Of a DNA stretch of 64,000 bases, positions 5,926 through 38,822 are shown piece after piece. A program made the position numbers and the translations under genes. The notes beneath the pieces are model-generated. The model was not told the origin of the DNA. It saw only the letters and a list, made by a program, of their open reading frames with translations, and did no database searches. Each line of letters opens with the position of its first letter. Within the stretch, counting starts at the first letter, position 1. Source of the stretch: Gammaproteobacteria bacterium (GTDB lineage Bacteria; Pseudomonadota; Gammaproteobacteria; CBDBNL01; JAAOII01); contig OZ242303.1 of assembly GCA_965207945.1 (NCBI GenBank), forward strand, positions 1,280,935 to 1,344,934, read 5' to 3'.

Positions 5926-8900
5926 TGGATAAAAACTTCAACTCAAAAGAAATAGAAGCGCGCTGGTCTAAATACTGGGAGGATGAGGACTTGTTTGCCC
6001 CCTCTGGAACTGGCGAGCCCTACTCCATAGTCATCCCTCCTCCCAATGTTACTGGCACTCTACACATGGGGCACGCCTTCCTCAACACCATCATTGACAC
6101 CCTCATCCGCTACCAACGGATGAATGGCAAAAACGTGTTGTGGCAGATGGGCACCGACCACGCCGGCATAGCCACTCAGATGGTAGTGGAAAGACGACTC
6201 GCAGCGCAAGGCAAAGACAAACGGGATATGGGAAGGGAAAAATTCTTAGCGGAAGTGTGGAAGTGGAAAGATATGTCATCGGGCACCATAGAAAAACAAC
6301 TACGCCGACTTGGCGCCTCAGTGGATTGGAAAACCAGCAGGTTCACTATGGACGATGCCTACATCAACTCGGTTATTGAAGCATTTGTGCGCCTACACGA
6401 GAAGGGCTTGGTGTATCGCAGCAAACGTCTGGTTAACTGGGACCCAGTCCTACAAACCGCAGTATCCGATTTAGAAGTGCGCGCCGTAGAAGAACCCTCT
6501 ACCCTATATTACATCCGTTATCCGTTCGTAGACGACCCTACTAACAAATCCTGCATGGTCATATCAACCACCCGACCAGAAACAACCCTGGCGGACGGCG
6601 CAGTTGCCGTCCACCCCGATGACGAACGTTATAAATCAGCGGTAGGCAGAATGGTGCGTGTCCCCGGCACCGACAGAATCATCCCCGTAATAGCCGATGA
6701 ATATGTAAAACCCGACTTCGGCTCCGGCTGTGTAAAAATAACTCCAGCACACGACTTCAACGATTACGAAGTGGGTCAAAGGCATACCATGGAAACAATA
6801 AACCTATTCACCAAAGACGCCCACCTCAACGAAAACGCCCCGCCCGCCTACAGAGGCATGGATAGATATGAAGCCCGCACCAAGATTGTGCAGGACTTCA
6901 AACAACAAGGACTCCTCGCAAAAGAAGAAAAGCACAGCTACAGCCCACCACGTGGCGACCGCAGTGGCGTTATATTGGAGCCGTATCTAACCGACCAATG
7001 GTTCATCAAGATGGACACCATGGCACAGCGCGCCATCAAGGCAGTGCAGGACGGCGAAACAAAGTTCGTCTCACCAATGTGGGAAAAAGTATATTACAAC
7101 TGGCTCAACGAAATCCAGGACTGGTGCGTAAGCCGCCAACTATGGTGGGGACACCGCATCCCCGCTTGGTATGATGAGGACGGCAAGCCGTATGTGGGAC
7201 GCAGCCAAGAAGAAGTGCGCGCCAAACACAACCTTGATAGCAGCGTGAAACTGCGCCAGGACGAAGATGTGCTTGATACCTGGTTCTCCTCAGCACTATG
7301 GACTTTTGCCACCATGGGCTGGCCCCATGAAAGTGGCGGGAATGAAAGCGGCGGAAAAGAAAACAACAGACAACAAACCTTCAACCCCACTGATTTATTA
7401 GTAACTGGTTTTGATATTATCTTCTTCTGGGTAGCAAGAATGATTATGGCAACCCTATGCCTAAAAGACGAAGTCCCCTTCCGCAATGTCTACATCCACG
7501 GACTAGTGCGCGACGGCGAAGGACAAAAGATGTCTAAATCCAAAGGGAACATCTTAGACCCTCTGGATATTATTGACGGAGTTGAACTGGAAGAACTACT
7601 GCGCAAACGCACCACAGACATGATGCAGCCAGACAAAGAAAAATCCATAGCCGCCGCCACCAAGAAACACTTCCCCGATGGCATCGCCGAACACGGCACC
7701 GACGCCCTAAGATTTACCTTCTGCGCTATGGCATCAACTGGACGCGACCTCAACTTTGACACATCCCGCTGCATCGGCTACCGCAACTTCTGCAATAAAC
7801 TATGGAATGCAACTCGTTATGTCCTGATGCAGTGCACAGATGCAGACAGAATGGCTGCCACAGACAAACCAACAGGCACCTCCAATATCATTGACCAATA
7901 CATGCAATGGCATTTTGAAATAGTCACCACTGAAATTAGAAATTCACTGGACAACTACCGTATTGACCTAGCAGCCCAAGCCCTCTATGAGTTTGTATGG
8001 CACGAATTCTGCAACTGGTACATCGAATTCACCAAACCAATCTTAGCAGGCGATGACGAACAAGCAAAAGCATCTACCAAGCAAGGACTACTAAGCATGT
8101 TAGACAACATTCTGCACTTAGCCCATCCCTTTATTCCCTTCATCACCGAAGAGACATGGCAACACCTGCATGCAGGGAATAAAAGTAAAAGTGTAAAGAG
8201 CATTATGGTGAGCCAATTCCCACAACATGCTCCCAAAAGTACTGAAGAAATAGATAAAGGAAATAAAAAATTTGCCGCAGTCGCCTGGATGAAAGAGTTC
8301 CTTCAAGGAGTTCGTGTTCTACGCAGTGAATTAAACATCTCCCCCAGCATCTCACTGGAGTTAATATTAGTTAGCGATGATAAAAATGAAGCACGATGGT
8401 TGGAAGAATATGCAGACATAATAAAGCCAATAATCAAATGCAATAAGTTAAGCTCACTAACAACTACTTCTACTAAAAAACCAGCAGCAATAGCCCGCTT
8501 AGCAGGAAAAGGCGAGGTCTTGATGCCAATAACGGCAAACAATCGACCGGGCATCAACAGAGAAGAAGAAGAAAAAAGATTACGGAAAAAGCTTACTATT
8601 GCTGAAGAGAATATCGTCAAACTCAACAACAAACTCAACAACAAAGGATTCACCAATAAAGCTCCTGACAACATAGTTAAAGGAGTTGAAAGAAAACTAG
8701 AAGAACAGGAAGACGCCTGGAATAAAATTAGCACGCAACGTATAGATTTTATAAAAGCTATGAACTCTCTTGATAAAGACAAGGATACTGTCCACGATAA
8801 TGTTGCAGATATGCTCAAGAAAGCTTCACAGATTCCAATAAATTATGCAGATATGCTCAATAATATTTCGCAGACTCAAAAGAATTATGCAGATATGCTC

Positions 8901-25619: not shown

Positions 25620-28010
25620 TCATTCCCACCAGATTAGTGGTTTAATTTCTTTGTAATCTATTTCTTGGGTATTTATTTTTGTACCATCTTCAAATTCAAC
25701 TTCATTAGCAGTAATTTTTCTAATATTTTTACCTTTCAGATTGGAAAGAGTTTCAGCAATATCAATATCCGGATATAAAGCACTTAGATCTACTTTAACT
25801 TTATTATTTTTATAGTCAATTGTTATCGCCTCTGTCATCTTCTCATCCTTCATAAAAACATATTCTTGATATGGACTTGCGCCAACTTGTAAATCTAAAA
25901 CATCACTATCCGCATATTTACATTTGCTTAATGTATCCTCATATTGTTCTAGTTCGTAGTATTTAAAAAATCCACCACCATTCCAATTAACTTCTTTAGA
26001 TATACCACAAGGTTCATTCCTTCCAATACCTGCCAATACTTGTTTCATTCTAAATAAAATATCTGATTCAAAATAGTTACCCATTTCTACCCCTACCCAT
26101 CTTCTTTGTAATTTATGAGCGGAAGCAATTGTAGTTCCTGATCCCATAAAAAAATCAAGGACTAAATCATTAGGTTTTGTAGTTAAAGAAATTATTCTCT
26201 TAAGTAATTGTTCAGGTTTTTGGGTAAGTTCTGATCCATGTGGAGTATATTCTTTAACATTTCTTTTAATCTTATTAGAATGTAGTTCCTCATATTCACT
26301 GGCATTCCATGTATCTTCAATATTATATGCGCCATCTTTGGTCTTAAGTCCTATTTTATAAACTTTACCTTTATCATCTTTTATAGTTACCTTAACGTTT
26401 GTAATTTTTTGTTTATCCACACCCCATTTATTATAAATGCTTTCTAATTCATTATTAATGGTATCCTTTCTAAATGAGCTATATTTAATTTTTGATTCTT
26501 TTTTCTTAAAGAAGTGTTCCGATCGACTATTTTTAGTGAAAATAAAAATAGTATCATGATTTCTGACAAAAGCATCAACTTGAGTTTTATATCCTGACAC
26601 CCACCCTATTCTCCAAATTATTTCATTGATAAAGTTTTTCTTAGAAAATATATTAGATAATAATATCCTTCCTAAATGTTGAGCGTTCCAATCTAAATGT
26701 AAAAAAATACTACCGCTCTGATTAATAAATTCTTTAGATAATCCTAGTCTATTATCCATAAGAGTTAGCCAAGTGCTATCCTGAAACCTATCAATATACT
26801 CAAAATCATTCCCAGTATTGAAGGGAGGGTCGATGTAAACAACTTGTACCTTTTGTTTAAACTTAGGCAATATAGTATTAAGTGCTTGATAATTTTCGCT
26901 CTTAATTAACCAACCATCTAGTTGATTATCTAAGTCATCGAATAAAGAAAGTATTTTAAATTTTAAATCTGGAAAATACTTAGTATCTATAGGTAGATGA
27001 GCATATTCACTATTATCTATATCTTTTGCGTTAAATTCTTCTTCAACTATACCCATTTCCTGCCATTCTTTTAATTGTTTATTAAAGTTAGGGTGCTTAA
27101 TTATTTTTTGGACTAGTTTCTTGTCAGTAATTCTATCCAGAGTGATTACATAGTTACTCTTACGGACAAACTTGGGTTTATTCCAAATCTTACCTAATTC
27201 GTTTTCAAATTGAGAAATAAAATCTATAATTTTATAAGTAATTATTTTTAATATCCTTAATTGCTCTATTCTTTCTGGAGTCCATTCATTATCCTCTTGC
27301 CAAAAGTACTGATAACTCCAAAGCTTAAATTGCTCCATAAGAAATTCCTTGGCATTCTTATTAATAAAATAATCAACTTTAGTTTGTTTTTCGAAAAGAT
27401 GAAATCCGCGTTCTAAATCTTCTGCTTTAACTTGTAATCCTGCTTCCTTAATTGATTTTAATATTGCATCTATGTCTGTCTTTTGTCCTTTTTTAGAATA
27501 GCTAACCTCTAAATTAACCAGTCTATCTTTTATATTCTTAAATATATATACAACCGAATTTTTTTCATTAGCTTTTTTGTGTCCCATATTACTGACATCA
27601 AAAAATAATTTATAACCACCTGATTCGTTAGGGTTAATTTCAATACTTCTAAAGATACTATCCGTCTTAACATAATAAAGCATATTAGTCTTCCAAAATA
27701 AAGATACATCTTGCTCCTCTGTATAAACTCTCTCGTATATATTATTATGGAAAGGGGTTGAATTAAAATAGATGGAACCATTCTCACTGAAATAGCGCTT
27801 GAAAAATGAATAAAGTTTATTAAAAATATCCTCTCTAAATTTAGGATTTTTACGTAACTGCACGTCAATATCTTTGTCAAGAATTTTCTTAATTTGAGAA
27901 TAATATCCATGCTTAATCTTCATCAAATTAACAAACCCTCCTTTGCCTTCAATCTTTGCACCAGCAAAAATATCTTCTAAAATTTGGTAAAACTTTTCTT
28001 CCTTGTTCAT
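25620..28010 (-). CDS. mod: DNA methyltransferase (beta-class N6A/N4C, type III Mod-like), paralog 1
   Basis: Motif IV YIDPPFNTGNDFEY precedes motif I LVLDFFMGSGTTIASAHKL (beta-class order). About 340-aa N-terminal and about 165-aa C-terminal extra domains are shared with paralog 2. Confidence 0.75.
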   Translation of the reverse strand: MNKEEKFYQILEDIFAGAKIEGKGGFVNLMKIKHGYYSQIKKILDKDIDVQLRKNPKFREDIFNKLYSFFKRYFSENGSIYFNSTPFHNNIYERVYTEEQDVSLFWKTNMLYYVKTDSIFRSIEINPNESGGYKLFFDVSNMGHKKANEKNSVVYIFKNIKDRLVNLEVSYSKKGQKTDIDAILKSIKEAGLQVKAEDLERGFHLFEKQTKVDYFINKNAKEFLMEQFKLWSYQYFWQEDNEWTPERIEQLRILKIITYKIIDFISQFENELGKIWNKPKFVRKSNYVITLDRITDKKLVQKIIKHPNFNKQLKEWQEMGIVEEEFNAKDIDNSEYAHLPIDTKYFPDLKFKILSLFDDLDNQLDGWLIKSENYQALNTILPKFKQKVQVVYIDPPFNTGNDFEYIDRFQDSTWLTLMDNRLGLSKEFINQSGSIFLHLDWNAQHLGRILLSNIFSKKNFINEIIWRIGWVSGYKTQVDAFVRNHDTIFIFTKNSRSEHFFKKKESKIKYSSFRKDTINNELESIYNKWGVDKQKITNVKVTIKDDKGKVYKIGLKTKDGAYNIEDTWNASEYEELHSNKIKRNVKEYTPHGSELTQKPEQLLKRIISLTTKPNDLVLDFFMGSGTTIASAHKLQRRWVGVEMGNYFESDILFRMKQVLAGIGRNEPCGISKEVNWNGGGFFKYYELEQYEDTLSKCKYADSDVLDLQVGASPYQEYVFMKDEKMTEAITIDYKNNKVKVDLSALYPDIDIAETLSNLKGKNIRKITANEVEFEDGTKINTQEIDYKEIKPLIWWE

Positions 28011-28122: not shown

Positions 28123-30411
28123 TCATTCCCACCAGATTAGTGGTTTAATTTCTTTGTAATCTATTTCTTGGGTATTTATTTTTGTACCATCTTCAAATTC
28201 AACTTCATTAGCAGTAATTTTTCTAATATTTTTACCTTTCAGATTGGAAAGAGTTTCAGCAATATCAATATCCGGATATAAAGCACTTAGATCTACTTTA
28301 ACTTTATTATTTTTATAGTCAATTGTTATCGCCTTTGTCATCTTCTCATCCTTCATAAAAACATATTCTTGATATGGGCTAGCACCAACCTGTAAATCTA
28401 AAACATCGCTATCTGCATACTTGCATTTGCTTAAGGTATCTTCATATTGCTCTAGTTCATAGTATTTAAAAAATCCGCCACCATTCCAATTAACTTCTTT
28501 AGATATACCACAAGGTTCATTCTTTCCAACGCCTGCCAATATCTGCTTCATTCTATTAAGAATTAGAGGATCAAAACTTACTCCCATCTCCACACCAACC
28601 CATTTTCTGTTAAGCTTGTGAGCGGCGGCTATAGTAGTCCCCGCCCCTAAGAAAAAGTCAGCAACTATATCATTCTCGTTGCTTGATGATTCTATAATTC
28701 TTCTAAGCAGGTTTTCAGGTTTTTGTGTCAAATAGCCAGTTCTTTCTTTGGATTGACTTGCAGTTCCTAAAGAAGGTATTTCTGTCCACCAATCATGCAA
28801 AGTCCTACCTTTATATTTATCCCAGTAAACTCTTTTTTCTTTATCCCATTGCCAATATCTATCTCCATTCTCATCAACTTTATTAAAAGATTTCTCATTT
28901 TCTTCTCTCCCTTTATATATAGGATTAAAAATATATTGTTCATCTTTACTATAGAATATAATATTATCGTGTTTTCTGCCCCACATTCCCTTTGCACCTG
29001 TTCCCGCATAACACCAAACTATGTCATTCCTAAAATTATCTTTTCCAAATACTTCATCCATTATAATTCTTCCGTAATAGTGAGCATTATGATCTAAATG
29101 TAGATAAAAATTTCCTGTTTCTTTCAATAGCTTATGAGCCAATGAAATGCGATCAAACATAATTGATAACCAAGTACTATCTCTAAATTTGTCAATATAT
29201 TCAAAATCATGTCCAGTATTAAAAGGTGGATCCATATAGATGGTTTGAATCTTTCCCGTAAACTTAGGTAATATAGAATTAAGCGCCTGATAATTTTCAC
29301 TCTTAATTAGCCATCCATCTAATTGATTATCTAAGTCATTAAATAAAGAAAGTATTTCAAACTTTAAATCTAAAAAATGCTTAGTATCTATTGGTAGGTG
29401 AGCGTATTTACTATTATCTATATATTCCTCATTAAATTTTCCATCAAATATACTAAGTTCTTTCCATTCTTTTAATTGCTTATTAAAATTAGGGTGATTA
29501 ACTATTTTTTTAACTAGTTTTTTATCTGTGATTTTATCCAGAGTTATTACATAGTTACTCTTGCGGACAAACTTGGGTTTATTCCAAATCTTACCTAATT
29601 CATTTTCAAATTGAGAAATAAAATCTATTATTTTATAAGTAATTATTTTCAGTAACCTTAGCTGCTCAATCCTATCTGGAGTCCATTCATTATCTTCTTG
29701 CCAAAAATACTGATAGCTCCAGAGCTTAAATTGCTCCATAAGAAATTCTTTGGCATTCTTATTAATAAAATAATCAACTTTAGTTTGTTTTTCAAAGAGA
29801 TTAAAGCCGTGTTCTAAATCATCTACTTTAGCTTGTAATCCTTCTTTTTTAATTGACTTAAGTATTCCGTTGGTGTCTGTTTTTTTACCATTTTTAGAAT
29901 AACTAACCTCTAAATTAACCAATCCATCTTTTATATTCTTAAATATATATATAACTGATTTCTTTTCATTGATTTTCTTGTGTTCCATATTACTGACATC
30001 AAAAAATAATTTCCAATTATCTGATTCGTTAGGATCAATTTCAATGCTTCTAAAGATACTATCTGTCTTAACATAATAAAGTATATTGGTTTTCCAAAAT
30101 AAAGAGACATCTTGTTCTTCCGTATAAACCTTCTCATATATATTATTATGAAAAGGAGTTGAATTAAAATAGATAGAACCATTCTCACTAAAGTAGCGAC
30201 TAAAAAACGAATAAAGCTTATTAAAAATTTCTTCTCTAAATTTAGGATGATTACATAACTGTACATCAATATCTTTTTCAAGAATTTTCTTAATTTGAGA
30301 ATAATATCCATGCTTAATCTTCATTAAATTAACAAACCCTCCTTTGCCTTCAATCTTTGCTCCAGCAAAAATATCTTCTAAAATTTGGTAAAACTTTTCT
30401 TCCTTGTTCAT
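28123..30411 (-). CDS. mod: DNA methyltransferase (beta-class N6A/N4C, type III Mod-like), paralog 2
   Basis: Motif IV YMDPPFNTGHDFEY and motif I IVADFFLGAGTTIAAAHKL. The N-terminal about 390 aa are about 85-90% identical to paralog 1 and the C-terminal about 150 aa about 99% identical. The central catalytic/TRD core is divergent. Confidence 0.75.
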   Translation of the reverse strand: MNKEEKFYQILEDIFAGAKIEGKGGFVNLMKIKHGYYSQIKKILEKDIDVQLCNHPKFREEIFNKLYSFFSRYFSENGSIYFNSTPFHNNIYEKVYTEEQDVSLFWKTNILYYVKTDSIFRSIEIDPNESDNWKLFFDVSNMEHKKINEKKSVIYIFKNIKDGLVNLEVSYSKNGKKTDTNGILKSIKKEGLQAKVDDLEHGFNLFEKQTKVDYFINKNAKEFLMEQFKLWSYQYFWQEDNEWTPDRIEQLRLLKIITYKIIDFISQFENELGKIWNKPKFVRKSNYVITLDKITDKKLVKKIVNHPNFNKQLKEWKELSIFDGKFNEEYIDNSKYAHLPIDTKHFLDLKFEILSLFNDLDNQLDGWLIKSENYQALNSILPKFTGKIQTIYMDPPFNTGHDFEYIDKFRDSTWLSIMFDRISLAHKLLKETGNFYLHLDHNAHYYGRIIMDEVFGKDNFRNDIVWCYAGTGAKGMWGRKHDNIIFYSKDEQYIFNPIYKGREENEKSFNKVDENGDRYWQWDKEKRVYWDKYKGRTLHDWWTEIPSLGTASQSKERTGYLTQKPENLLRRIIESSSNENDIVADFFLGAGTTIAAAHKLNRKWVGVEMGVSFDPLILNRMKQILAGVGKNEPCGISKEVNWNGGGFFKYYELEQYEDTLSKCKYADSDVLDLQVGASPYQEYVFMKDEKMTKAITIDYKNNKVKVDLSALYPDIDIAETLSNLKGKNIRKITANEVEFEDGTKINTQEIDYKEIKPLIWWE

Positions 30412-30601: not shown

Positions 30602-31240
30602 ATGCCAAATGATTGTAAAAAAACTATTGATGATCTTAATCAAATTATTAAGACTGATCCAAATAATGCATATGCTTACGATGATCGCGGCCATACTAAA
30701 TTTAAATTACAAGATTATCAAGGAGCCATTGATGATCTTAATCAAGCCATTAATATTGAACCAAATAATGCAAAATTTTACAGTAATCGTGGCGTCATTA
30801 AACTTACAATTAAAGATTATAAAGGAGCTATCAATGATTTTACTGAATCTATTAAAATTGATCCAAATGAAACCCGTTATTACAATAATCGTGGCAACGC
30901 TAAACTTGAAATTAAAGATTACAAAGGGGCTATCAAAGATTATCAAATAGCACTTAAAATTAACCCAAATAATGCAAATGCTTACAATGATCGCGGTATC
31001 GCCAAACGTGAATTAAAAGACTATAACGGGGCTATCAATGATTTTACTCAGGCTATTGAAATTGAACCGAATGATGCGAATGCTTACAATAATCGTGGTA
31101 ATATTAAATATAAATTAAAAGACTATAACGGGGCTATCAATGATTATCAAATAGCATTAAATTTAAGTGATAATAAATATTTAACTGGAAGAATAACTAA
31201 ATCCCTTAAGCAAGTTCAGAAAACATTAAAAGATTCGTAG
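30602..31240 (+). CDS. orphan TPR-repeat protein (6 TPRs; same subfamily as the FRG-TPR genes; possibly an N-terminally truncated remnant)
   Basis: Starts inside a TPR helix (MPNDCKKTIDDLNQIIKTDPNNAYAYDDRG). The repeats (AYNNRGNIKYKLKDYNGAINDY) match those at 35.6-36.3 kb, 37.4-37.9 kb and 9.3-11.0 kb. Confidence 0.55.
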   Translation: MPNDCKKTIDDLNQIIKTDPNNAYAYDDRGHTKFKLQDYQGAIDDLNQAINIEPNNAKFYSNRGVIKLTIKDYKGAINDFTESIKIDPNETRYYNNRGNAKLEIKDYKGAIKDYQIALKINPNNANAYNDRGIAKRELKDYNGAINDFTQAIEIEPNDANAYNNRGNIKYKLKDYNGAINDYQIALNLSDNKYLTGRITKSLKQVQKTLKDS

Positions 31241-31384: not shown

Positions 31385-32815
31385 TCATGCCACTAATTCT
31401 TCTATTTGCAAAACACGAGATTTTAAGGTATCTATAAAAACATCACACTGTTCTTTCATAAGCTGATTAAAATTTCCAGATTCATTATCTTTTGGCACTT
31501 TTAGAAACATCACATGAAAATGAATATCACTACCATGTTGTCTAATAACATCAGAAATTAATTCCAAAGATTGCTCCACATTAAAGTGCGCGTCCCATTC
31601 GTCTTCAGGCATTGGGTAGATAAACCCACATCCGCCTATTGGTCGTTCATTAGCATATTGACCTATATAGGTATGTAATTGGAAAAGGTCTTCTCGCTTT
31701 ACGCCTTTATTGGTATTGAAATTTTTATACTTAACATCAAATACATAAAGTCCCCCATTACTTTCAAACACAATATCTGGTATTAACTTACGAACCCCTT
31801 TATTAGAGTATCCTGCCGTTGGTATTGGATGTTCTTTTCCGGATACTTCTCGTAATATTATGCTATTTCTTATCAGAAGTTTTCTAATAAAATATTCAAA
31901 TAGCATTGACACATCAAATAAGAAAGCGCTATCATCTTTTATAGAACCAAAATTAATTCCATGTTGAGTTATGATCCTCTTTGACAGATCTATCAAAATA
32001 TTATAGTCGTTGTAAAAAGGATTAGTAAAATGTGGGGTTTCCATAATTTCCTTATAACTTCTTTTTATTCCTTGATTTGCTATTACAAAAGAATTGTAGA
32101 TGCCTCTTGTCTGCTCACAAAAAGAATAGCTCTTGATTAACTCATAAGCTTTAATAAAAAGGGAAGTTGCCGGACTACTGTAACTATGTTCTCGGTATGA
32201 GCAAAGATATTTACCTGATGTTTTATTGAGAAAGTAATCAACTGGGTCAATGCTGCCCCTAACCTTTGACGTCATTTCGGTCTTAGTTACATAAGTTTTG
32301 GGTATACCCAGACGGTATGCTCGCATAAATTTAATATTCCATAGGTATGCCAATAGCCAGTCATGCCCTTTCTTATTTCCCGCCCCACCAATATTTTCTA
32401 CTTCACGGAAGCCATCTGTATCTGCAATTATGTACTGTAAGAATGAATCACCGAAACGGGAACTAATATTCAATCCATAATCGCCCTTCTTTACAAAACC
32501 AACAACATTGCCAGTCTTTAGTGTGAAGTTATCTTTATTGCTACCAGTTATGTTAATAAACTCATCATTAGTATTATGCTTATACTCTTCAGAATTGAAT
32601 AGAAAATCAGTATGTCCGTTAGTATCATTAAATGCACGCTGCATATCGGATGATATAGATTGGAGGAATAGAAATGCTGGTTCATCTATTTGTCCGTTAC
32701 TTTCTAAATTTGCATGGTAAGAGTTTCTGTTCCATTTATTGACCAGCATTCCTTCCTCGGATTGATAACTTTGGTTATCACGAAGAGTTATACTTTTATG
32801 ATTTTGATTTTCCAA
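31385..32815 (-). CDS. mcrC: McrC-like type IV restriction nuclease subunit
   Basis: Immediately downstream of mcrB. C-terminal PD-(D/E)xK: LIPDIVFESNGGLYVFDVKYK. Confidence 0.7.
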   Translation of the reverse strand: MENQNHKSITLRDNQSYQSEEGMLVNKWNRNSYHANLESNGQIDEPAFLFLQSISSDMQRAFNDTNGHTDFLFNSEEYKHNTNDEFINITGSNKDNFTLKTGNVVGFVKKGDYGLNISSRFGDSFLQYIIADTDGFREVENIGGAGNKKGHDWLLAYLWNIKFMRAYRLGIPKTYVTKTEMTSKVRGSIDPVDYFLNKTSGKYLCSYREHSYSSPATSLFIKAYELIKSYSFCEQTRGIYNSFVIANQGIKRSYKEIMETPHFTNPFYNDYNILIDLSKRIITQHGINFGSIKDDSAFLFDVSMLFEYFIRKLLIRNSIILREVSGKEHPIPTAGYSNKGVRKLIPDIVFESNGGLYVFDVKYKNFNTNKGVKREDLFQLHTYIGQYANERPIGGCGFIYPMPEDEWDAHFNVEQSLELISDVIRQHGSDIHFHVMFLKVPKDNESGNFNQLMKEQCDVFIDTLKSRVLQIEELVA

Positions 32816-32820
32816 AGCGT

Positions 32821-34554
32821 CTATTTATTACTTTCCATTCCAAACACTTTCCTAAATTGTTGGATGAGTTCATTCTCTTTACCACCTGTACCACGAAGAT
32901 ACTCATGTAATAAAGGATAGATGCAATCTACCCATATTTTATTTCTAACCTCATCAAGAGTTAAATTATTTGGATACTTCATATTCATCAGATATGCATG
33001 TCCTATTTGATAGTCAGAACCAAGCAGCTCCGTATTTGTAATTTCTTTATTAAGAAACTCAAGATTTTCTGCTAATCCAACCCAATCTTGTTTTTTCTTT
33101 GCCAGATCCTGCTTTAGAATATCAATATTAGGCACAACTTCTTCCCAATGGAATCTTCTGCGCAGAGCGAAATCAAAACTTTCAATACTGCGGTCAATAG
33201 TATTCATAGTACCAATTAGACGAATATTAAATGGAATAAAGAATTGGTATCCCAACTCATTGTTAAACATACCTGTTTCTTTATCATTAAGGGTTGAATA
33301 TTGGGTTTTGATAACACCCTTTACACCCCGATATTCCAGACAATACATTAACTCTCCAAGAACTCGTGAAAGTTCTGCCCTATTAATTTCATCTATTATG
33401 AAGTAAAAAGGAGGGATGGCATCTATAAGTAATATAGAAGAATCTCCTATATCAAAAATATATTTCCAATGATTTTCTTTTTCTGTTAACCTACTTTTGC
33501 TATTCTCAATGTCTTTGATTGTAAGTGAACTGAAATTTTGGTTTTCACATATTTTGTGATTATAAATGTCAAGTTCCCATTTACTAGCTTTTATACAGAA
33601 ATCCTTGAATACCCCGTTTTGTAACCTAAGTTGAGTCGCTTCATTTTTATCTGGCACAGGCCGCAAACCTTCCATAAAATCTTCATAACTAAACGAAGGA
33701 TGAAACTGAACAAATTCATGCTGCTCTGCATACATATAGTAACTTGTTGGCGCAAATTTCTTTTTCCATTCATTAAAGTGTGATTCGGCCTGTTTCTTAG
33801 CTTCGTATGTCTTACCAGTTCCAGGAGGACCATATTTAATCACTTGATTTTTAATGGCGAATATATCTTTCATATTTTCATTTTGGGTTGTCGTATCGTT
33901 ATAAGGAGCTACTATATTTTTTTCAGGGTTTTCTATATGTTCATTTAAGCGCCAAACAAACATACTTAAATAAAATTCATCTGTCTTTTCATTTTCTAAT
34001 TCATTCTGAAGTTTTTCTCTAATTTCTTTCATTAGAAATTGATTTCTTGCGAACCATTCTCGGGATCTGTTATTACGACCTGTATTATAAGGATATTCAG
34101 ATATCATTTTTTCCTTCATTAACCATTTAAATACTGCATCAAATTTTTTAACACTAACTGTAGTAGATACCCCAAGGGTACTTGCTGCAGCTATCCTATT
34201 AATCAATAAATGATTCTGTTTACCTTTCCAATTTTTATAAAGTTCATGATAAGTATTCTCTGTTGGATTTTTGATAAGAGACTCAAGGGCAGACATAAAA
34301 TTATCATCCTTAATAAATGAGTTAAATCTCTTAGGTAGTAAACCCGATTGTTTGCAACTAGCAATTCCGTTATCTCTAGTTTTAATTAATTTATCTAAAA
34401 AATCTTTATCCTGCTTCCATGATTCATCTTTATTAATAGTGTAATGAACATGATTAAAAAAATTTTTGTAATTGTTGTACCAAATATTAAATCCTTTGTT
34501 ATCCTTGTCAACAAGACTTTCATAATAATGTTTTAATTTGTTTTCCATAATCAT
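32821..34554 (-). CDS. mcrB: McrB-like AAA+ GTPase with an unusual approx. 215-aa N-terminal (putative DNA-reader) domain
   Basis: Walker A VIKYGPPGTGKTY and the McrB hallmark FYFIIDEINRAELSRVLGELMYCLEYRG. The N-terminal domain is homologous to the ORF at 38073-38822. Confidence 0.8.
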   Translation of the reverse strand: MIMENKLKHYYESLVDKDNKGFNIWYNNYKNFFNHVHYTINKDESWKQDKDFLDKLIKTRDNGIASCKQSGLLPKRFNSFIKDDNFMSALESLIKNPTENTYHELYKNWKGKQNHLLINRIAAASTLGVSTTVSVKKFDAVFKWLMKEKMISEYPYNTGRNNRSREWFARNQFLMKEIREKLQNELENEKTDEFYLSMFVWRLNEHIENPEKNIVAPYNDTTTQNENMKDIFAIKNQVIKYGPPGTGKTYEAKKQAESHFNEWKKKFAPTSYYMYAEQHEFVQFHPSFSYEDFMEGLRPVPDKNEATQLRLQNGVFKDFCIKASKWELDIYNHKICENQNFSSLTIKDIENSKSRLTEKENHWKYIFDIGDSSILLIDAIPPFYFIIDEINRAELSRVLGELMYCLEYRGVKGVIKTQYSTLNDKETGMFNNELGYQFFIPFNIRLIGTMNTIDRSIESFDFALRRRFHWEEVVPNIDILKQDLAKKKQDWVGLAENLEFLNKEITNTELLGSDYQIGHAYLMNMKYPNNLTLDEVRNKIWVDCIYPLLHEYLRGTGGKENELIQQFRKVFGMESNK

Positions 34555-34693
34555 TTATACAACATATCTAACATGATGTCAAGTTATGTAATTCCTTTTT
34601 AGTTACTCCAGTAAAATAATGCAATATTAAATAAAGAGTAAATCAAGTTCACACATACTATATTACTTGTACATAGAATTAGACAGATTAAGA

Positions 34694-34699
34694 TATAAT
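34694..34699 (+). promoter_or_regulatory. putative -10 hexamer (TATAAT) 7-8 nt upstream of the leader-ORF ATG
   Basis: gatataat is conserved in both FRG-TPR upstream regions (34692-34699 and 36444-36451) with the same spacing to the uORF ATG. This suggests a leaderless or near-leaderless transcript. Confidence 0.3.
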
Positions 34700-34706
34700 A
34701 ACAAAA

Positions 34707-34766
34707 ATGAATTATTCTACCAAAATATATAAAAAGGTTCTGCCAGCAACCACCCTACTTCCTTGA
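34707..34766 (+). CDS. 19-codon upstream leader ORF (MNYSTKIYKKVLPATTLLP) whose TGA overlaps the TTG start of FRG-TPR 1
   Basis: ATG 34707, stop TGA 34764-34766, main ORF TTG at 34763 (TTGA overlap). The paralogous copy is at 36458-36517. Confidence 0.35.
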   Translation: MNYSTKIYKKVLPATTLLP

Positions 34767-36418
34767 GTTATATTCAAGATACTGGAAGTAATGCACCAGT
34801 AGTTAATTCCGTTTCAGAGTTTCTTGCATGCATTAATGATATTATAAAATATAACAATGACCAGGGAAGTAAATTTTTGTTTAGAGGTCAAGAGAACGAA
34901 GAGTGGGAGATGGAAACATCTGCTTATAGGCGTCTAAAAAGAGAATCCAACGATAATCAAGTATCAGAAGGAGAGGAATTGTATTACAATCTTGGATTAA
35001 TACAACAATTTAGACATGCAGATTTCCATAGCAAGTACTCATCAGAAATAATGCAGCAGGACTTAGGTATTTTAGCTCAACTACAACATATGGGAGCTGC
35101 AACCTCATTAATTGATTTCACTGATAACGCAACAACTGCTTTATGGTTTGCTTGTAAAAAAAGTATAAACTCAGATAGTAATCATAATAATGGCAAGGTA
35201 TTTATTTTATTTGCAGGTGGCGAACATAATTTTGAAGAGATTGATAGTTTAGAACAAATAAAAAATTCTAGAGTAAGATTTCCTAAACAATTAGAATTTG
35301 CTAAAGAAAATAATATATTAAACAATGAAAAGTTAAACTATTGGAAACCAGCGCATCTTAATAATCGCATTACTGCTCAGCAATCTTATTTTTTAATAGG
35401 CAAAAGAGAACCACCAAAAATGCAAGAAATAGTTATAGCAGGAGCTTCAAAAATTGATATGTTAGAAGAGCTATCATTAGTACATGGAATTGAGCGAACG
35501 ACATTATTTCCAGATTTAGTTGGTTTTGCGCAGGCAAATTCTGTAGATTCAGCTTACGGCAAAGAAGAAAAACTGTTAAGAAAGAGAAATATTATTCGCC
35601 ATCACGATGAAATTATTGAACAAAGCCCTGAAGATCTCGGAGCTTATAGTAATCGAAGCATTGCTAAGTACAATTTGGGGGATTACGAAGGGGCTATTGA
35701 TGATTTTACCCAAGCTATTAATATTGACCCAAAGAATGCAAATGCTTACAATAATCGTGGTTACATTAAATATCAAATAGAACGTTACAAAGATGCTACT
35801 GATGATTTCAATGAAGCTATTAAGATTGACCCAAGCACTGCATTATTTTATAATAATCGCGGTAATCTTAAATGCACGTTAAAAAAATATCAACTTGCTG
35901 TTAATGATTACAATGAAGCTATTAAAATTGAATCAAATAATGCATTATTTTATAACGGTCGCGGACATGCTAAGCGTGGATTAAAAGATTATAAAGAAGC
36001 TATTAATGATTTTACTAAAGCTATTAATATTGACCCGAATGATGTAAATTCTTACAACGAACTCGGAAACACTAAACTTAAATTAAAAGATTATAAAGAA
36101 GCTATTAATGATTTTACTAAAGCTATTGAAATTGATCCAAAGAATGCAAATCTTTACTATAATCGTGGTATGACTGAATATGAATCCAAAGATTATAAAG
36201 AAGCTATTAATGATTTTACTAAAGCTATTGAAATTGATCCAAAGAATGCAAATGCTTACCATAGCTCTGGTAAAGCTAAACTTGAGTTAAATGATTATAA
36301 AGAAGCTATTAATGATTATGAAACAGCACTGAAGCATAGTATAGACAAAGATTTAACTGAGGATATAACTCTAGACCTTGAGGATGCCCAGGACACTTTT
36401 AGAGAACGTACAAGGTAA
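34763..36418 (+). CDS. FRG-domain protein fused to C-terminal TPR repeats (paralog 1)
   Basis: KFLFRGQENEEW and LGILAQLQHMGAATSLIDFTDNATTALWFA match FRG-domain (PF08867) consensus motifs (FRGQ; QHyGlPTrLLDWT). The C-terminus has about 8 TPRs. There is no in-frame ATG before the FRG motif, so it starts at TTG 34763. Confidence 0.7.
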   Translation: MSYIQDTGSNAPVVNSVSEFLACINDIIKYNNDQGSKFLFRGQENEEWEMETSAYRRLKRESNDNQVSEGEELYYNLGLIQQFRHADFHSKYSSEIMQQDLGILAQLQHMGAATSLIDFTDNATTALWFACKKSINSDSNHNNGKVFILFAGGEHNFEEIDSLEQIKNSRVRFPKQLEFAKENNILNNEKLNYWKPAHLNNRITAQQSYFLIGKREPPKMQEIVIAGASKIDMLEELSLVHGIERTTLFPDLVGFAQANSVDSAYGKEEKLLRKRNIIRHHDEIIEQSPEDLGAYSNRSIAKYNLGDYEGAIDDFTQAINIDPKNANAYNNRGYIKYQIERYKDATDDFNEAIKIDPSTALFYNNRGNLKCTLKKYQLAVNDYNEAIKIESNNALFYNGRGHAKRGLKDYKEAINDFTKAINIDPNDVNSYNELGNTKLKLKDYKEAINDFTKAIEIDPKNANLYYNRGMTEYESKDYKEAINDFTKAIEIDPKNANAYHSSGKAKLELNDYKEAINDYETALKHSIDKDLTEDITLDLEDAQDTFRERTR

Positions 36419-36445
36419 CTCTTCTAAAAACAATAAATAGTAAGA

Positions 36446-36451
36446 TATAAT
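36446..36451 (+). promoter_or_regulatory. putative -10 hexamer (TATAAT) upstream of the second leader ORF
   Basis: Same conserved gatataat context and spacing as copy 1. Confidence 0.3.
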
Positions 36452-36457
36452 AATAAA

Positions 36458-36517
36458 ATGAATTCTTCTACTAAAACATATAAAAAGGTTCTTCCTCCAA
36501 CCACTCTACTTCTTTGA
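36458..36517 (+). CDS. 19-codon upstream leader ORF (MNSSTKTYKKVLPPTTLLL) whose TGA overlaps the TTG start of FRG-TPR 2
   Basis: ATG 36458, TGA 36515-36517, main TTG 36514. It is 15/19 aa identical to copy 1. Confidence 0.35.
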   Translation: MNSSTKTYKKVLPPTTLLL

Positions 36518-37986
36518 GTAATAATAAGAACAATGGGTCCGTTGAGAATGTTAAAGATTTTCTTGAACACATCAACAAAATTGTAAAGCCAGAAACTCAA
36601 AAGGCAAGCAAAGTTTTATTTAGAGGGCAAGAGAGTGCAGAGTGGCCAATAGAAACATCTGCTCATAGACGTTTAAGAGGAAAATCAAATGAAAAAATAA
36701 TATCAGAAGAACAAGAACTATATTACAATATTAGATTAATAGAACAGTTTAAACATGGGGATTTCCATAGTCCTAATTCATCAGAAATGATGAAAAATGA
36801 CTTAGGTATTCTAGCCCAATTACAACATCAGGGAGCTGCTACTTCATTAATTGATTTCTCGGATAATCCTTTAGTCGCTTTATGGTTTGCTTGCCAAGAA
36901 AGCCCAAAATCGGTTAGTGATCATAATGGACAGGTATTCATTCTATCTACAAGTAGTAATAAATATAATTTTGAAGAGATAGATAGTATTGAACAAATAG
37001 AGTATTATAAAGTAAGTATTCCTGATCAATTACACAATCCTAAGATAGATGGTATATTGAACGACCCTACGTTCTTCTATTGGAAACCAGCACATCTTAA
37101 TAACCGTATTACTGCCCAGCAATCATATTTTTTGATAGGCAAAAGAAAACTCCCAGAAATGGAAAAAATATCTATAGAAGAAAATTCAAAATTTAATATC
37201 CTAAAAGAGTTATTATCAGTATATGGGATTAATGAAGTAACGCTATACCCCGATTTAGTCGGTTTTGCGCAAGCAAATTCTTCACGTTCATCTTATGACC
37301 AAGAGACACAAAATGAAACACAAAAATTTATATATAAAAAAAGTATTTTTCGCCTAAATAAAAAGATCAAAGAAAACTCTGAAGATTATGATTCTTATAG
37401 CAAACGAGGGGTTGCCAAATATAAATTGGATGATTATAAAGGTGCTATTGATGATTGGAGTGAAGTTATCAAGGTTAATCCAAATAATGCAACTATTTAC
37501 TATAATTGTGGGGTCGCTAAGGGTAAATTAAAAGATTATAAAAGAGCTATTGATAATTATGATAAAGCCATTAAGTATAATCCAGATTATGCAGACGCTT
37601 ACAATAATCGTGGTGATGCAAAAGATCAATTAAAAGATAATAAAGGCGCTATGGATGATTACAATAAAGCTATTAAGATTGATCCAAACCATGCAGATGC
37701 TTACAATAATCGTGGGGCAGCTAAATATGAATTAAAAGATAATAAAGGTGCTATGGATGATTACAATAAAGCTATTGAGATTAATCCAAATTATGCAACT
37801 GCTTACAATAATCGTGGCGATGCTAAAATTAAATTAGAAGATTATAAAGGCGCTATTGATGATTATCAAACAGTTTTAAAACATAGTAAGGATACAAACT
37901 TAACTGAGATTGCAAATAAAAATATTAAGCTAGGCAAGGCAAAATTAAAGGAAGTACAGAATAAATTTTCTAAAGATAAGAAGTAG
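36514..37986 (+). CDS. FRG-domain protein fused to C-terminal TPR repeats (paralog 2)
   Basis: KVLFRGQESAEWPIETSAHRR and LGILAQLQHQGAATSLIDFSDNPLVALWFA, then about 6 TPRs. Starts at TTG. Confidence 0.7.
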   Translation: MSNNKNNGSVENVKDFLEHINKIVKPETQKASKVLFRGQESAEWPIETSAHRRLRGKSNEKIISEEQELYYNIRLIEQFKHGDFHSPNSSEMMKNDLGILAQLQHQGAATSLIDFSDNPLVALWFACQESPKSVSDHNGQVFILSTSSNKYNFEEIDSIEQIEYYKVSIPDQLHNPKIDGILNDPTFFYWKPAHLNNRITAQQSYFLIGKRKLPEMEKISIEENSKFNILKELLSVYGINEVTLYPDLVGFAQANSSRSSYDQETQNETQKFIYKKSIFRLNKKIKENSEDYDSYSKRGVAKYKLDDYKGAIDDWSEVIKVNPNNATIYYNCGVAKGKLKDYKRAIDNYDKAIKYNPDYADAYNNRGDAKDQLKDNKGAMDDYNKAIKIDPNHADAYNNRGAAKYELKDNKGAMDDYNKAIEINPNYATAYNNRGDAKIKLEDYKGAIDDYQTVLKHSKDTNLTEIANKNIKLGKAKLKEVQNKFSKDKK

Positions 37987-38072
37987 TTAAATTATGTCTT
38001 TTAGTGGTGGTGGTTTAGCTAAAATTTAAAGGGGTGAGTTATTGTAGAGGATTGTATATTATCTTATAGTTC

Positions 38073-38822
38073 TTATTTTTTAAGATGGAAGGATTCACTG
38101 TATTTGTATAGATACCAAACAAAGTGACTTAAAAATATTTCATCTGTCGTACCACTTTTTAGTTCGTCTTGGAATTGTTGTTTAATTTCTTTCATTAGAA
38201 ATAGGTTTTTCCTAAACCATTGTTGGGACTCAGTGTAATGACTATCGTCAGGATGATATTGCTCAATCATTTTTTCTCTAATTAGCCAATCAAATAGAGG
38301 GTTAAATTTTTGTATATCCACTGTTGTGGATACTTCAGTTGTGCTGGCTGCCGCTGTGCGGAGAATTCTTATTAGATTATTAGATCCTTTTTCTTCTTTC
38401 CAAATTTTTTCAAAACGCTGAAGAGTAATATCTGTTGGATTTAAGATTAGTTCTGTAAGGGCAGACATAAAATTATCACTTCCGATAAATGAATGGAATT
38501 GTTCCTTTGATAACATTGACTGCCCGCATGAAGCAATACCATTATTTTTTTTGTAAAGTAACTCCTCTAAAAATTCTTCATTTTCTCCCCATGAGTGATT
38601 CCCAGTTTTAATGAGATTTCTTATTCTTTTGAGTTTACCAAATAAATATTTATGTTGGCCGTACCAATATTTAACGCTTTCTATGCCTTCTATCTCTTCC
38701 CTTTCCATGCGTTGGTTAACGAGGCGTTCGTAAAGTAATTTTAATGTAGTTGTCATGTTTATATTATAGTGTATTTTAATGATATGAGTATAGCGATGGC
38801 TTGTTGTAAGTTCAAAGTCCAT
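38073..38822 (-). CDS. free-standing homolog of the McrB N-terminal domain (no AAA+ module); likely start at internal Met (38756)
   Basis: Aligns with McrB residues about 60-215. NNGIASCGQSMLSKEQFHSFIGSDNFMSALTELILNPTD..RILRTAAASTTEVSTTVDIQKFNPLFDWLIREKMI..FLMKEIKQQFQDELKSGTTDEIFLSHFVW is similar to DNGIASCKQSGLLPKRFNSFIKDDNFMSALESLIKNPTE..RIAAASTLGVSTTVSVKKFDAVFKWLMKEKMI..FLMKEIREKLQNELENEKTDEFYLSMFVW. Confidence 0.65.
   Translation of the reverse strand: MDFELTTSHRYTHIIKIHYNINMTTTLKLLYERLVNQRMEREEIEGIESVKYWYGQHKYLFGKLKRIRNLIKTGNHSWGENEEFLEELLYKKNNGIASCGQSMLSKEQFHSFIGSDNFMSALTELILNPTDITLQRFEKIWKEEKGSNNLIRILRTAAASTTEVSTTVDIQKFNPLFDWLIREKMIEQYHPDDSHYTESQQWFRKNLFLMKEIKQQFQDELKSGTTDEIFLSHFVWYLYKYSESFHLKK

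Follow-up and report, generated by a model that had tools for sequence, protein, structure and literature searches.

Frameshift-split FRG-TPR genes in a gammaproteobacterial defence island and their predicted expression by termination-reinitiation

We analysed two tandem FRG-TPR genes in a 64,000-nucleotide stretch of gammaproteobacterial DNA (contig OZ242303.1; the window). The two appear to be genes that a frameshift has split from their own 5' ends, yet they are, rather probably, still expressed, through termination-reinitiation that follows a probable leaderless initiation. Comparison with homologues indicates that the 19-codon ATG ORF in front of each, which the sequence-only reading had taken for a dedicated leader peptide, is the FRG gene's own severed ancestral 5' end, since close paralogues and orthologues join the same ATG in frame to the FRG body through an A-run that is one base longer. 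From sequence we infer where transcription starts and that both the 5' ATG and the TTG serve as start codons.

A direct coordinate check agreed with the earlier description of both genes in that neither has an in-frame ATG before the FRG motif and each starts at a TTG inside a TTGA that overlaps the stop of the 19-codon ORF (Table 1). In both main frames this TTG is the sole start codon between the upstream in-frame stop (TAA at 34730 and 36481, respectively) and the FRGQ motif, which is found in both gene products. Relative to the FRG body, ORF 1 is read in the +1 frame after codon 10. A database protein identical to the product of gene 2 (P0018) is called from the same TTG. A TATAAT hexamer does precede both leader ATGs, as had been noted, although at a spacing of 6-7 nt and not 7-8 nt.

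Table 1. Coordinates of the FRG-TPR genes, their leaders and their neighbours in the window.
Feature	Position	Strand	Remarks
McrC	31385-32815	-	
McrB-like GTPase, 577 aa	32821-34554	-	divergent from FRG gene 1; Pfam AAA_5; NCBIfam McrB 3.7e-32, below cut-off
TATAAT -10-like box, gene 1	34694-34699	+	7-nt spacer to leader ATG
19-codon ATG ORF 1	34707-34766	+	encodes MNYSTKIYKKVLPATTLLP*
AAAAAGG (A5GG run), gene 1	34731-34737	+	frame lost relative to A6GG fused copies; also potential -1 slippery site U_AAA_AAG
TTGA, gene 1	34763-34766	+	TTG start overlaps TGA of 19-codon ORF 1
FRG-TPR gene 1	34763-36418	+	551 aa counted from TTG
FRG/ART-like module, gene 1	~34799-35533	+	
TPR array, gene 1	35693-36317	+	102-nt units
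TATAAT -10-like box, gene 2	36446-36451	+	6-nt spacer to leader ATG
19-codon ATG ORF 2	36458-36517	+	encodes MNSSTKTYKKVLPPTTLLL*
AAAAAGG, gene 2 leader	36482-36488	+	
TTGA, gene 2	36514-36517	+	TTG start overlaps TGA of 19-codon ORF 2
FRG-TPR gene 2	36514-37986	+	490 aa counted from TTG
TPR array, gene 2	37408-37865	+	
Stand-alone McrB N-terminal-domain paralogue, 249 aa	38073-38822	-	convergent with FRG array

Pfam searches bore out the domain calls: FRG (PF08867) matched the two gene products with 62.7 and 67.9 bits (cut-off 25), and TPR_1 matched seven stretches in the product of gene 1 and five in that of gene 2. In 50 homologues G41 never varies, and conservation of R40 and Q42 is 90% or higher. 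In addition, PADLOC PDC-S15 HMMs matched both proteins (3.2e-32 and 6.9e-36) over residues ~10-257. The Frg clade of the ADP-ribosyltransferase (ART) superfamily consists of predicted NADase effectors (Iyer et al. 2022, PMC9503650), and the products of the two genes are predicted to be an ART-superfamily FRG module, putatively NAD+-consuming, fused to TPRs.

The genes sit in a restriction/defence island. Pfam, NCBIfam and BLASTP placed the pair between McrBC and a paralogue of the McrB N-domain, whose product shares 42% identity over 222 aa with the N-terminal ~210 aa of the McrB-like protein (BLASTP, E 2e-50). McrB-N-domain-like genes bracket the FRG arrays in 8/8 related loci, and the genomic surroundings of FRG genes comprise McrBC, GmrSD, type III R-M and MTases; it is these surroundings that support a putative role in protection against phage. 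The suggestion that the pair forms a new sensor or regulatory module found no support in any result.

The comparison set was made up of the window and eight syntenic loci from related gammaproteobacterial MAGs, with ~33 leader-bearing copies. The leader arrangement recurred in 18 further paralogues and orthologues from the eight related loci, each time with 19 codons and an [A/T]TGA overlap, and is thus beyond chance. In the fused state (13 copies) an A6GG run joins the ATG and the FRG body in one frame; in the split state (20 copies from nine loci, the window included) the A-run is one base shorter (A5GG) and the 19-codon ORF results. The contrast is seen at the DNA level between L009:10001 (TCT AAA AAA GGT TCT) and L001:3933 (TCT AAA AAG GTT CT). 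A5GG was present in 15 copies across separate assemblies; among paralogues the run varies from A5 to A8, and the window genes have only A5. The leader is continuous with the FRG reading frame in P0014 (MNSSNKIPKKGSTGSRHTPLSTSQ…), P0008, P0003, P0007 and P0010. The N-terminal tail of fused copies follows the pattern MNSS.K..KK-GS.SN....LS..Q, with MN.S.K..KKGS.SN… in frame in P0014, P0008, P0003 and L011:11747; read in the -1 frame, the window leaders give KGSASNHPTSL and KGSSSNHSTSL, which are homologous to these in-frame tails. In P0026 the leader is joined via the other frame (VLP.TTL).

At the nucleotide level the leader is 83-88% identical among copies with no codon-position bias, and no copy has a 3n indel in its 57 nt, whereas the 60 nt that follow are only 49-58% identical and indel-rich. 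The fused or split state differs between sister genes on the FRG-body tree. The 5' ends look mosaic relative to that tree, which points to the possible spread of a single ancestral leader cassette by recombination; because they may share one such cassette, the 20 split copies are not 20 independent observations. A scan of genome contigs returned one close locus (L001) and seven other matches, which are distant FRG genes with the leader absent, and a metagenome scan with the DNA pattern ATGAATTHTTCYRMYAAAAYA, which was too loose, gave 120 chance matches, none encoding FRG.

FRG-TPR paralogues of this small-genome gammaproteobacterial clade are probably made as leaderless mRNAs, because TATAAT lies 6-7 nt ahead of the ATG (in 26 of the 32 complete leaders) and a Shine-Dalgarno (SD) sequence is absent. 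This promoter-to-ATG geometry is consistent with the leaderless initiation that the sequence-only reading had proposed. Every leader starts with ATG, and the copies lacking TATAAT include three placed 5 nt behind the stop codon of an upstream FRG gene. A strong SD precedes only 6 of the 45 ORFs of the window. A sigma-70 consensus scan found no -35 element paired with TATAAT, and a single weak, internal terminator-like site was the only one detected. For 15 split leaders, alifold gave a consensus of -3.8 kcal/mol with no covariation and no conserved hairpin, and single folds likewise gave nothing stable; a riboswitch, an attenuator hairpin and a stimulator of programmed frameshifting were rejected for this lack of stable or covarying structure. 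An Rfam scan of 34000-38500 at E<=1 gave no match.

The junction between the two frames is strictly kept. In 20/20 split copies the short ORF is exactly 19 codons long and its TGA overlaps a start-capable codon, TTG in 16 and ATG in four. In contrast, fused copies have any Leu codon at the same position (TTG 2, CTG 3, CTA 1, CTT 1, TTA 1, or deleted; Fisher p = 7e-5). That the split copies carry TTG or ATG only there argues for the TTG as the true start position. Termination-reinitiation coupling, as originally suggested, is the reading that best fits this comparative pattern. A ribosome would initiate at the 5' AUG, read 19 codons in the wrong frame and terminate at the TGA, which lies within the old Leu-Ser codons (TTG AGT); it would then begin anew at the TTG that overlaps this stop (in four relatives an ATG), giving an FRG-TPR protein minus a tail of ~20 residues. 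A minor fraction of ribosomes may slip -1 at U_AAA_AAG and yield the tailed full-length form. Against reinitiation, a TTG behind pyrimidine-rich sequence is a weak start, and conservation of the overlap could be partly protein-level, as the TGA is embedded in conserved Leu-Ser codons. Reinitiation alone also leaves unexplained the absence of 3n indels and the high identity of the leader without codon-position bias.

Frameshifting might instead be the main route; the sequence-only reading missed that the main frame is open back to AAAAAG, which makes a -1 shift a formal rival. Ribosomes starting at the ATG would slip -1 on U_AAA_AAG (codons 9-10) and rebuild the ancestral tailed protein MNYSTKIYKK-GSASNHPTSLSYIQ… (predicted N-terminus of the product, MNYSTKIYKKGSAS…), with the 19-codon peptide made as a by-product by ribosomes that do not shift, as in dnaX tau/gamma and IS3-family transposases. 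AAA_AAG is the classic bacterial -1 slippery pair (dnaX, IS911, IS150), and the pair is present at codons 9-10 of the leader frame. The main frame lies at -1 to the ATG ORF, its open stretch beginning exactly at the TAA inside TAT-AAA-AAG, and P0014 and other in-frame homologues match the predicted fusion. AAAAAG is kept in 15/20 split copies, the -1 frame is open from there in 19/20, and in CTACTT the wobble positions of both frames are conserved, as dual coding predicts. We nevertheless consider this route unlikely, and prefer reinitiation to it, because the slippery motif is lost in five of the 20 split copies (AAAATG, AAACAG, AAAACG, AAAAAT and AAAATTAG) and no stimulatory RNA structure is found; downstream of the site nothing stable or conserved was detected (z-scores -0.4 to +1.2), the sole candidate being a 4-bp GGUU/AACC stem abutting it. 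The five motif-less copies retain intact bodies of 440-694 aa, and the AAAATTAG copy also has a TAG in the -1 frame. Moreover, the heptamer begins with T (occasionally C), so that re-pairing in the P site would be imperfect although the A-site pair is ideal, an SD-like element upstream of the slippery site is absent, and the TTG or ATG that always stands at the Leu codon of split copies is not needed for frameshifting.

It is rather unlikely that ribosomes load straight at the TTG or ATG, with the 19-codon ORF a relic that has no role in FRG expression. SD-independent internal starts must be common, since most genes of the window lack an SD, and the TTG has been upgraded to ATG in four relatives; however, independent initiation leaves unexplained why 20/20 copies have kept the relic ATG with its open frame and exactly 19 codons, together with the stop/start overlap, and the region upstream of the TTG is C/U-rich rather than A/U-rich. 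A regulatory leader peptide in the manner of an attenuator, stalling or releasing ribosomes on a signal and so gating a toxic NADase-like effector, is quite improbable. Its length is invariant and its nucleotide conservation strong, the tract ahead of the stop is C-rich and G-poor, and 13/19 complete uORFs end in Pro-TGA, a slow-terminating context in tnaC and SsrA-tagging studies. The encoded peptide, however, differs non-synonymously at many of its positions without third-position bias, the final residue varies (P, L or S), ~40% of paralogues are fused and thus have no separate leader, and a terminator or alternative structure is absent. An artefact or decay, that is, homopolymer sequencing errors (A5 for A6) or pseudogenes, is highly improbable. 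Fused and split copies do differ by one homopolymer base, coverage is only 3-9x in several related contigs, among them L014 with its fragmented genes, and a stop interrupts the body of L012:11472. Yet the 15 A5GG copies come from separate assemblies that include chromosome-scale contigs (the window, L001 and L011), other long ORFs of the window are unbroken, split copies show further adapted changes (TTG to ATG and loss of the A-run), and purifying selection acts on their intact bodies (dN/dS 0.22-0.49 at dS 0.2-0.77).

Two other explanations were set aside. Recoding of TGA (genetic codes 4 or 25) was rejected, as the ORFs do not share a frame and the next stop in the leader frame comes 13 codons on. 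Transcriptional slippage is known on runs of at least 7-9 and is unlikely on the shorter A5 run.

The comparison corrects an annotation puzzle: FRG-TPR genes are called clade-wide from TTG without an ATG, and the 'leader peptide' is their displaced N-terminus. The 20 split and 13 fused copies, with four TTG-to-ATG upgrades and five losses of the slippery run, offer a natural comparative series on how a frameshifted gene is kept expressed without the use of SD sequences, and a functional role of the fixed 19-codon length, if there is one, would give new insight into leaderless initiation followed by reinitiation. More tentatively, and with little probability, the invariant leader could be a selected expression gate, in which ±1 changes of the A-run toggle paralogues of a tandem effector array from direct translation (fused) to a split state, and back, with output in the split state dependent on leaderless 70S initiation followed by reinitiation or Pro-UGA pausing. 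With such a gate the amount of effector would follow the condition of the translation machinery, as when phage attack, and tail-less versus tailed isoforms would arise.

Phase-variable (contingency) genes with homopolymer tracts occur in restriction/defence loci, and the genes described here resemble them in location and in states that differ by ±1 base in an A-run. The tract here, however, is only 5-6 nt, changes of state are confined to comparisons of copies with dS of ~0.2 or more, and the 'off' state is apparently still expressed. With dnaX and the A_AAA_AAG sites of IS3/IS911 type they share a zero-frame AAA_AAG pair, a downstream ORF in the -1 frame and a zero frame that soon stops; unlike in those systems, the first heptamer base is T, an SD-like or hairpin stimulator is absent, and the motif is lost in 5/20 copies while the overlapping start codon is conserved instead.

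Compared with the Frg clade (PMC9503650) and the PADLOC candidate system PDC-S15, the window genes add a C-terminal TPR array and stand in tandem arrays, 2-6 paralogues each, with McrB-N-domain-like genes on both sides; defence biology gains little from them, as neither the prediction of FRG as an ART/NADase effector nor its place among the PADLOC candidates is new. In the ppe2 uORF of M. tuberculosis, termination-reinitiation is the main route and a frameshifted fusion is a minor product (Kipkorir et al. 2024, PMC11260477), and mycobacteria have leaderless small ORFs (Shell et al. 2015, PMC4633059). As in these cases, a short uORF would feed ribosomes to the downstream ORF via a tight overlap. 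In contrast to ppe2, the host is of a gammaproteobacterial symbiont lineage and not an actinobacterium, there is no riboswitch, and the uORF is repeated before ~20 paralogues, alternating with in-frame versions. A further likeness is to coupling at ATGA/TGATG, which is widespread (Huber et al. 2019, PMC6728339; review PMC12548453): the overlap is of 4 nt (TTGA, or ATGA in four relatives), it is strictly conserved, and the downstream start has no SD. It differs in that the upstream partner is no gene but a 19-codon out-of-frame remnant of the downstream gene's 5' end, that the start is mostly the weak TTG, and that the first ORF is probably reached by leaderless initiation. The arrangement is a neat but fairly ordinary variant of known translational coupling.

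Each FRG-TPR gene of the window (genes 1 and 2) had been described as following a TATAAT hexamer and a 19-codon ATG ORF (here, the leader) whose stop overlaps a TTG start as TTGA. We recovered this arrangement in both genes (coordinates in the table). From the upstream in-frame stop to the FRGQ motif, the TTG is the sole start-type codon in both main frames, so that indeed no in-frame ATG precedes the motif. Pfam confirmed the fusion of FRG (PF08867; 62.7 bits in gene 1 and 67.9 bits in gene 2, cut-off 25) to TPRs, with 7 and 5 TPR_1 stretches, respectively, C-terminal to it. Neighbouring ORFs and their sequence identity likewise place the pair between McrBC and a paralogue of the McrB N-terminal domain. 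The database protein P0018 is identical to the product of gene 2. The sequence-only reading had called FRG functionally undescribed; however, Iyer et al. 2022 (PMC9503650) have already placed Frg in the ART superfamily and suggested that it may serve prokaryotic immunity as an NADase effector. A module of ~245 residues matches the PADLOC candidate PDC-S15 (3e-32 and 7e-36 for the two genes), and we regard the window genes as a known candidate defence gene, predicted to be NADase-like. Their TPR regions are 102-nt tandem arrays, and near-identical adjacent units in gene 1 (…DYKEAINDFTKAIEIDPKNAN… twice) suggest that a unit was duplicated recently. Paralogues differ widely in TPR copy number, their total lengths running from 390 to 1051 aa.

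Features of the FRG-TPR region and its surroundings in the window
Feature	Position	Strand	Remarks
N6_N4 DNA methyltransferase	25620-28010	-	796 aa
N6_N4 DNA methyltransferase	28123-30411	-	762 aa
TPR-only ORF	30602-31240	+	212 aa; 5 TPR_1 stretches
McrC	31385-32815	-	FRG-pair neighbour
McrB-like GTPase	32821-34554	-	FRG-pair neighbour
Gene 1 TATAAT box	34694-34699	+	7-nt spacer to leader ATG
Gene 1 short ATG ORF	34707-34766	+	encodes MNYSTKIYKKVLPATTLLP*
Gene 1 TTGA overlap	34763-34766	+	leader TGA / main-ORF TTG
Gene 1 main ORF	TTG at 34763, end 36418	+	551 codons
Gene 1 TPR array	35693-36317		6.1 copies; 75-78% matches
Gene 2 TATAAT box	36446-36451	+	6-nt spacer to leader ATG
Gene 2 short ATG ORF	36458-36517	+	encodes MNSSTKTYKKVLPPTTLLL*
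Gene 2 TTGA overlap	36514-36517	+	
Gene 2 main ORF	TTG at 36514, end 37986	+	490 codons
Gene 2 TPR array	37408-37865		4.5 copies; 75-78% matches
249-aa ORF	38073-38822	-	42% identity to N-terminal ~210 residues of McrB-like protein

The main frame of both window genes is offset by -1 from the leader, and is open upstream as far as a TAA inside TAT-AAA-AAG, codons 8-10 of the leader. The A-run of this site occupies 34731-34735 in gene 1 and 36482-36486 in gene 2. The ATG would join the FRG body via one added A in this run, or via a -1 slip on AAA_AAG; for gene 1 the hypothetical product is MNYSTKIYKK-GSASNHPTSL-SYIQ…. Initiation at the TTG would give the N-terminus (f)M-S-Y-I-Q…, and the frameshift MNYSTKIYKKGSAS…. 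Used as a query, the hypothetical ATG-FRG fusion matched 85 relatives. Among the 26 closest, P0014 (MNSSNKIPKKGSTGSRHTPLSTSQ…), P0008 (MSSPNKTSKKGSSS…), P0003, P0007 and P0010 have an in-frame tail of this type; many others have their annotated start at MS[DN]…, which corresponds to the TTG of the window genes. The distant relatives (P0027 onward) open with an ATG a few residues ahead of the domain and lack the tail entirely.

We catalogued leader-bearing copies in the window and in eight related syntenic loci: L001 lies on a gammaproteobacterial MAG chromosome of 2.06 Mb, and L009-L014 and L135 come from two metagenome assemblies in ENA (ERZ25069762 and ERZ25069764). All eight contain arrays of 2-6 FRG-TPR genes, flanked on one side by restriction/defence genes and on the other, as in the window, by a PolyA_pol-Ldh-Na/Ca-exchanger block. 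Of 33 copies, 13 have the leader ATG in frame with the FRG body (fused) and 20, including both window genes, have it out of frame (split). The fused ATG reaches the body through A6GG, A7GG, A5GGG, A6GA, A7GT or A8, or with the run absent, whereas 15 of the 20 split copies have AAAAAGG, one base fewer than the commonest fused form. The one-A difference is seen directly between L009:10001 (locus:position), TCT AAA AAA GGT TCT…, and L001:3933, TCT AAA AAG GTT CT…. Judging from these fused relatives and the one-base-shorter run, the 19-codon ORF is not a dedicated leader peptide, as had been proposed, and is instead the gene's own severed 5′ end, out of frame past codon 10 and terminating where the former Leu-Ser codons (TTG AGT) conceal a TGA. 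L012:6298 (span 6298-6380) has its leader in the fused frame (A6GG) but meets a TAA after 24 codons; an ATG 7 nt past that TAA is where its FRG gene (P0022) starts anew. P0026 uses the other frame to connect leader and body (MNSSDKTSKKVLPKTTLA-SLSNIQ…), implying a second, compensating indel just ahead of the TTG. Split and fused copies are intermixed in the FRG-body tree (fused L009:10001 is sister to split L011:13986 and L012:9945), and 5′ ends appear recombined between paralogues, so that the 20 split copies are non-independent samples.

Split genes would be expressed by initiation at the codon overlapping the leader TGA, coupled to translation of the short ORF. Start conservation, loss of the A-run, absence of a stimulator and purifying selection all favour this route. 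The 19-codon ORF with its TGA-overlapping start is found in 20/20 split copies, as TTG in 16 and ATG in 4 (L011:13986, L013:9945, L013:16564 and L135:14027). In fused copies the same Leu is TTG (2), CTG (3), CTA, CTT or TTA, or is deleted; the start-capable codon thus distinguishes split from fused copies (Fisher p = 7e-5, on non-independent copies). A change of TTG to CTG or TTA, synonymous for a frameshift product and sparing the leader stop, occurs in none of the 20 split copies.

A -1 slip at U_AAA_AAG is a possible minor route, as 15/20 split copies retain AAAAAG and in 19/20 the -1 frame can be read on from this site without a stop. However, the other five have lost the slippery site (AAAATG, AAACAG, AAAACG, AAAAAT and AAAATTAG, the last also putting a TAG in the -1 frame), and their bodies are intact (440-694 codons). 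Nor did any stimulator of frameshifting emerge: folding z-scores of -0.4 to +1.2 show the leaders to be unstructured, their consensus fold (-3.8 kcal/mol) has no covariation, and Rfam gave no match at the locus. Judged by dN/dS of 0.22-0.49 in their FRG modules (at dS 0.2-0.77), the split genes are not decaying. The sequence-only interpretation is partly supported: it remains plausible in its TTG start, its coupling and its leaderless geometry, but a new sensor module is unsupported.

The 57-nt leader has no indels among the 20 (non-independent) split copies, whereas the equivalent stretch has indels in 5/13 fused copies (p = 0.006). Since triplet indels would keep the stop/start overlap, neither simple reinitiation nor frameshifting predicts such a constant length. 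Leaders are 83-88% identical between copies, against merely 49-58% for the next 60 nt, and synonymous sites in the body are far more diverged than the leader. Leader variation has no third-position bias in either frame, and so does not reflect ordinary peptide conservation. The length could be fixed because ribosomes that initiated at a 5′ end need a certain distance, because the DNA contains an operator, because both frames are used, or because promoter and leader are converted together as a cassette.

From its geometry we infer a leaderless mRNA start at the leader ATG: TATAAT lies 6-7 nt ahead in 26 of 32 complete leaders, all leaders start with ATG, and none has a Shine-Dalgarno (SD) sequence. 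A consensus scan found no -35 partner for the TATAAT. Three box-less copies follow an upstream FRG gene, 5 nt past its TAA, with the box decayed to …AATAA…, suggesting that their ATG is reached by coupling from that gene. SD sequences are scarce throughout the genome: of 45 long ORFs in the window, just 6 have a strong one upstream (GGAG, GAGG or AGGA). Several other window ORFs have a TATAAT-like or TANAAT hexamer 5-8 nt ahead of the ATG, e.g. at 3374(+), 46398(-), 51877(+), 56207(+) and 61666(-). Initiation that is leaderless or independent of an SD may be widespread in this lineage, which, if true, would be unusual for Gammaproteobacteria. The TPR-only ORF on the far side of McrBC, which has no FRG, shows a leaderless-like geometry (TATACT 7 nt ahead of its ATG, no SD).

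In 9/9 loci including the window, each block of 1-5 FRG-TPR genes is bracketed by stand-alone paralogues of the McrB N-terminal domain (~190-250 aa, on the other strand); in the window this role falls to the 249-aa ORF and, upstream, to the N-domain that belongs to the complete McrB-like protein. The blocks look like a repeated cassette structure, in which the paralogues might work together with FRG-TPR or serve as recombination substrates that shuffle cassettes. The tandem paralogous methyltransferases of the window share their first codons (ATGAACAAGGAA) and are almost identical in the 40 nt upstream. In L012, an RVT_1 reverse transcriptase gene (384-2102, +, 572 aa) ends 19 nt ahead of the ATG of fused L012:2122, which lacks the usual TATAAT. 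A divergent 1033-aa FRG-TPR subtype that lacks the 19-codon leader and carries a long basic tail at its N-terminus (MNAKKTRSEKKTLKKERQRRK…) is present at L009 4473-7574, L013 6773-9874 and L014 about 6139-7329, the L014 copy being broken up into several short ORFs on a contig of 3x coverage.

The arrangement resembles termination-reinitiation coupling at ATGA/TGATG overlaps (PMC6728339), mycobacterial leaderless small ORFs (PMC4633059) and, especially closely, the M. tuberculosis ppe2 uORF, whose translation is required for PPE2 expression, with a tight overlap needed, termination-reinitiation the main route and a minor frameshifted fusion also produced (PMC11260477). In contrast to these systems, the upstream ORF here is the gene's own out-of-frame remnant, is repeated ahead of ~20 paralogues in alternation with in-frame alleles, and has a strictly fixed length. 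Two defining features of dnaX/IS-type frameshifting are missing here, the stimulator being absent and the slippery site unconserved, and the locus has no long repeat of the kind that phase variation would call for. The system would be a variant of known translational coupling, on a known candidate defence gene, and its main value lies in a fixed-length leader that is not accounted for and in a natural allelic series.
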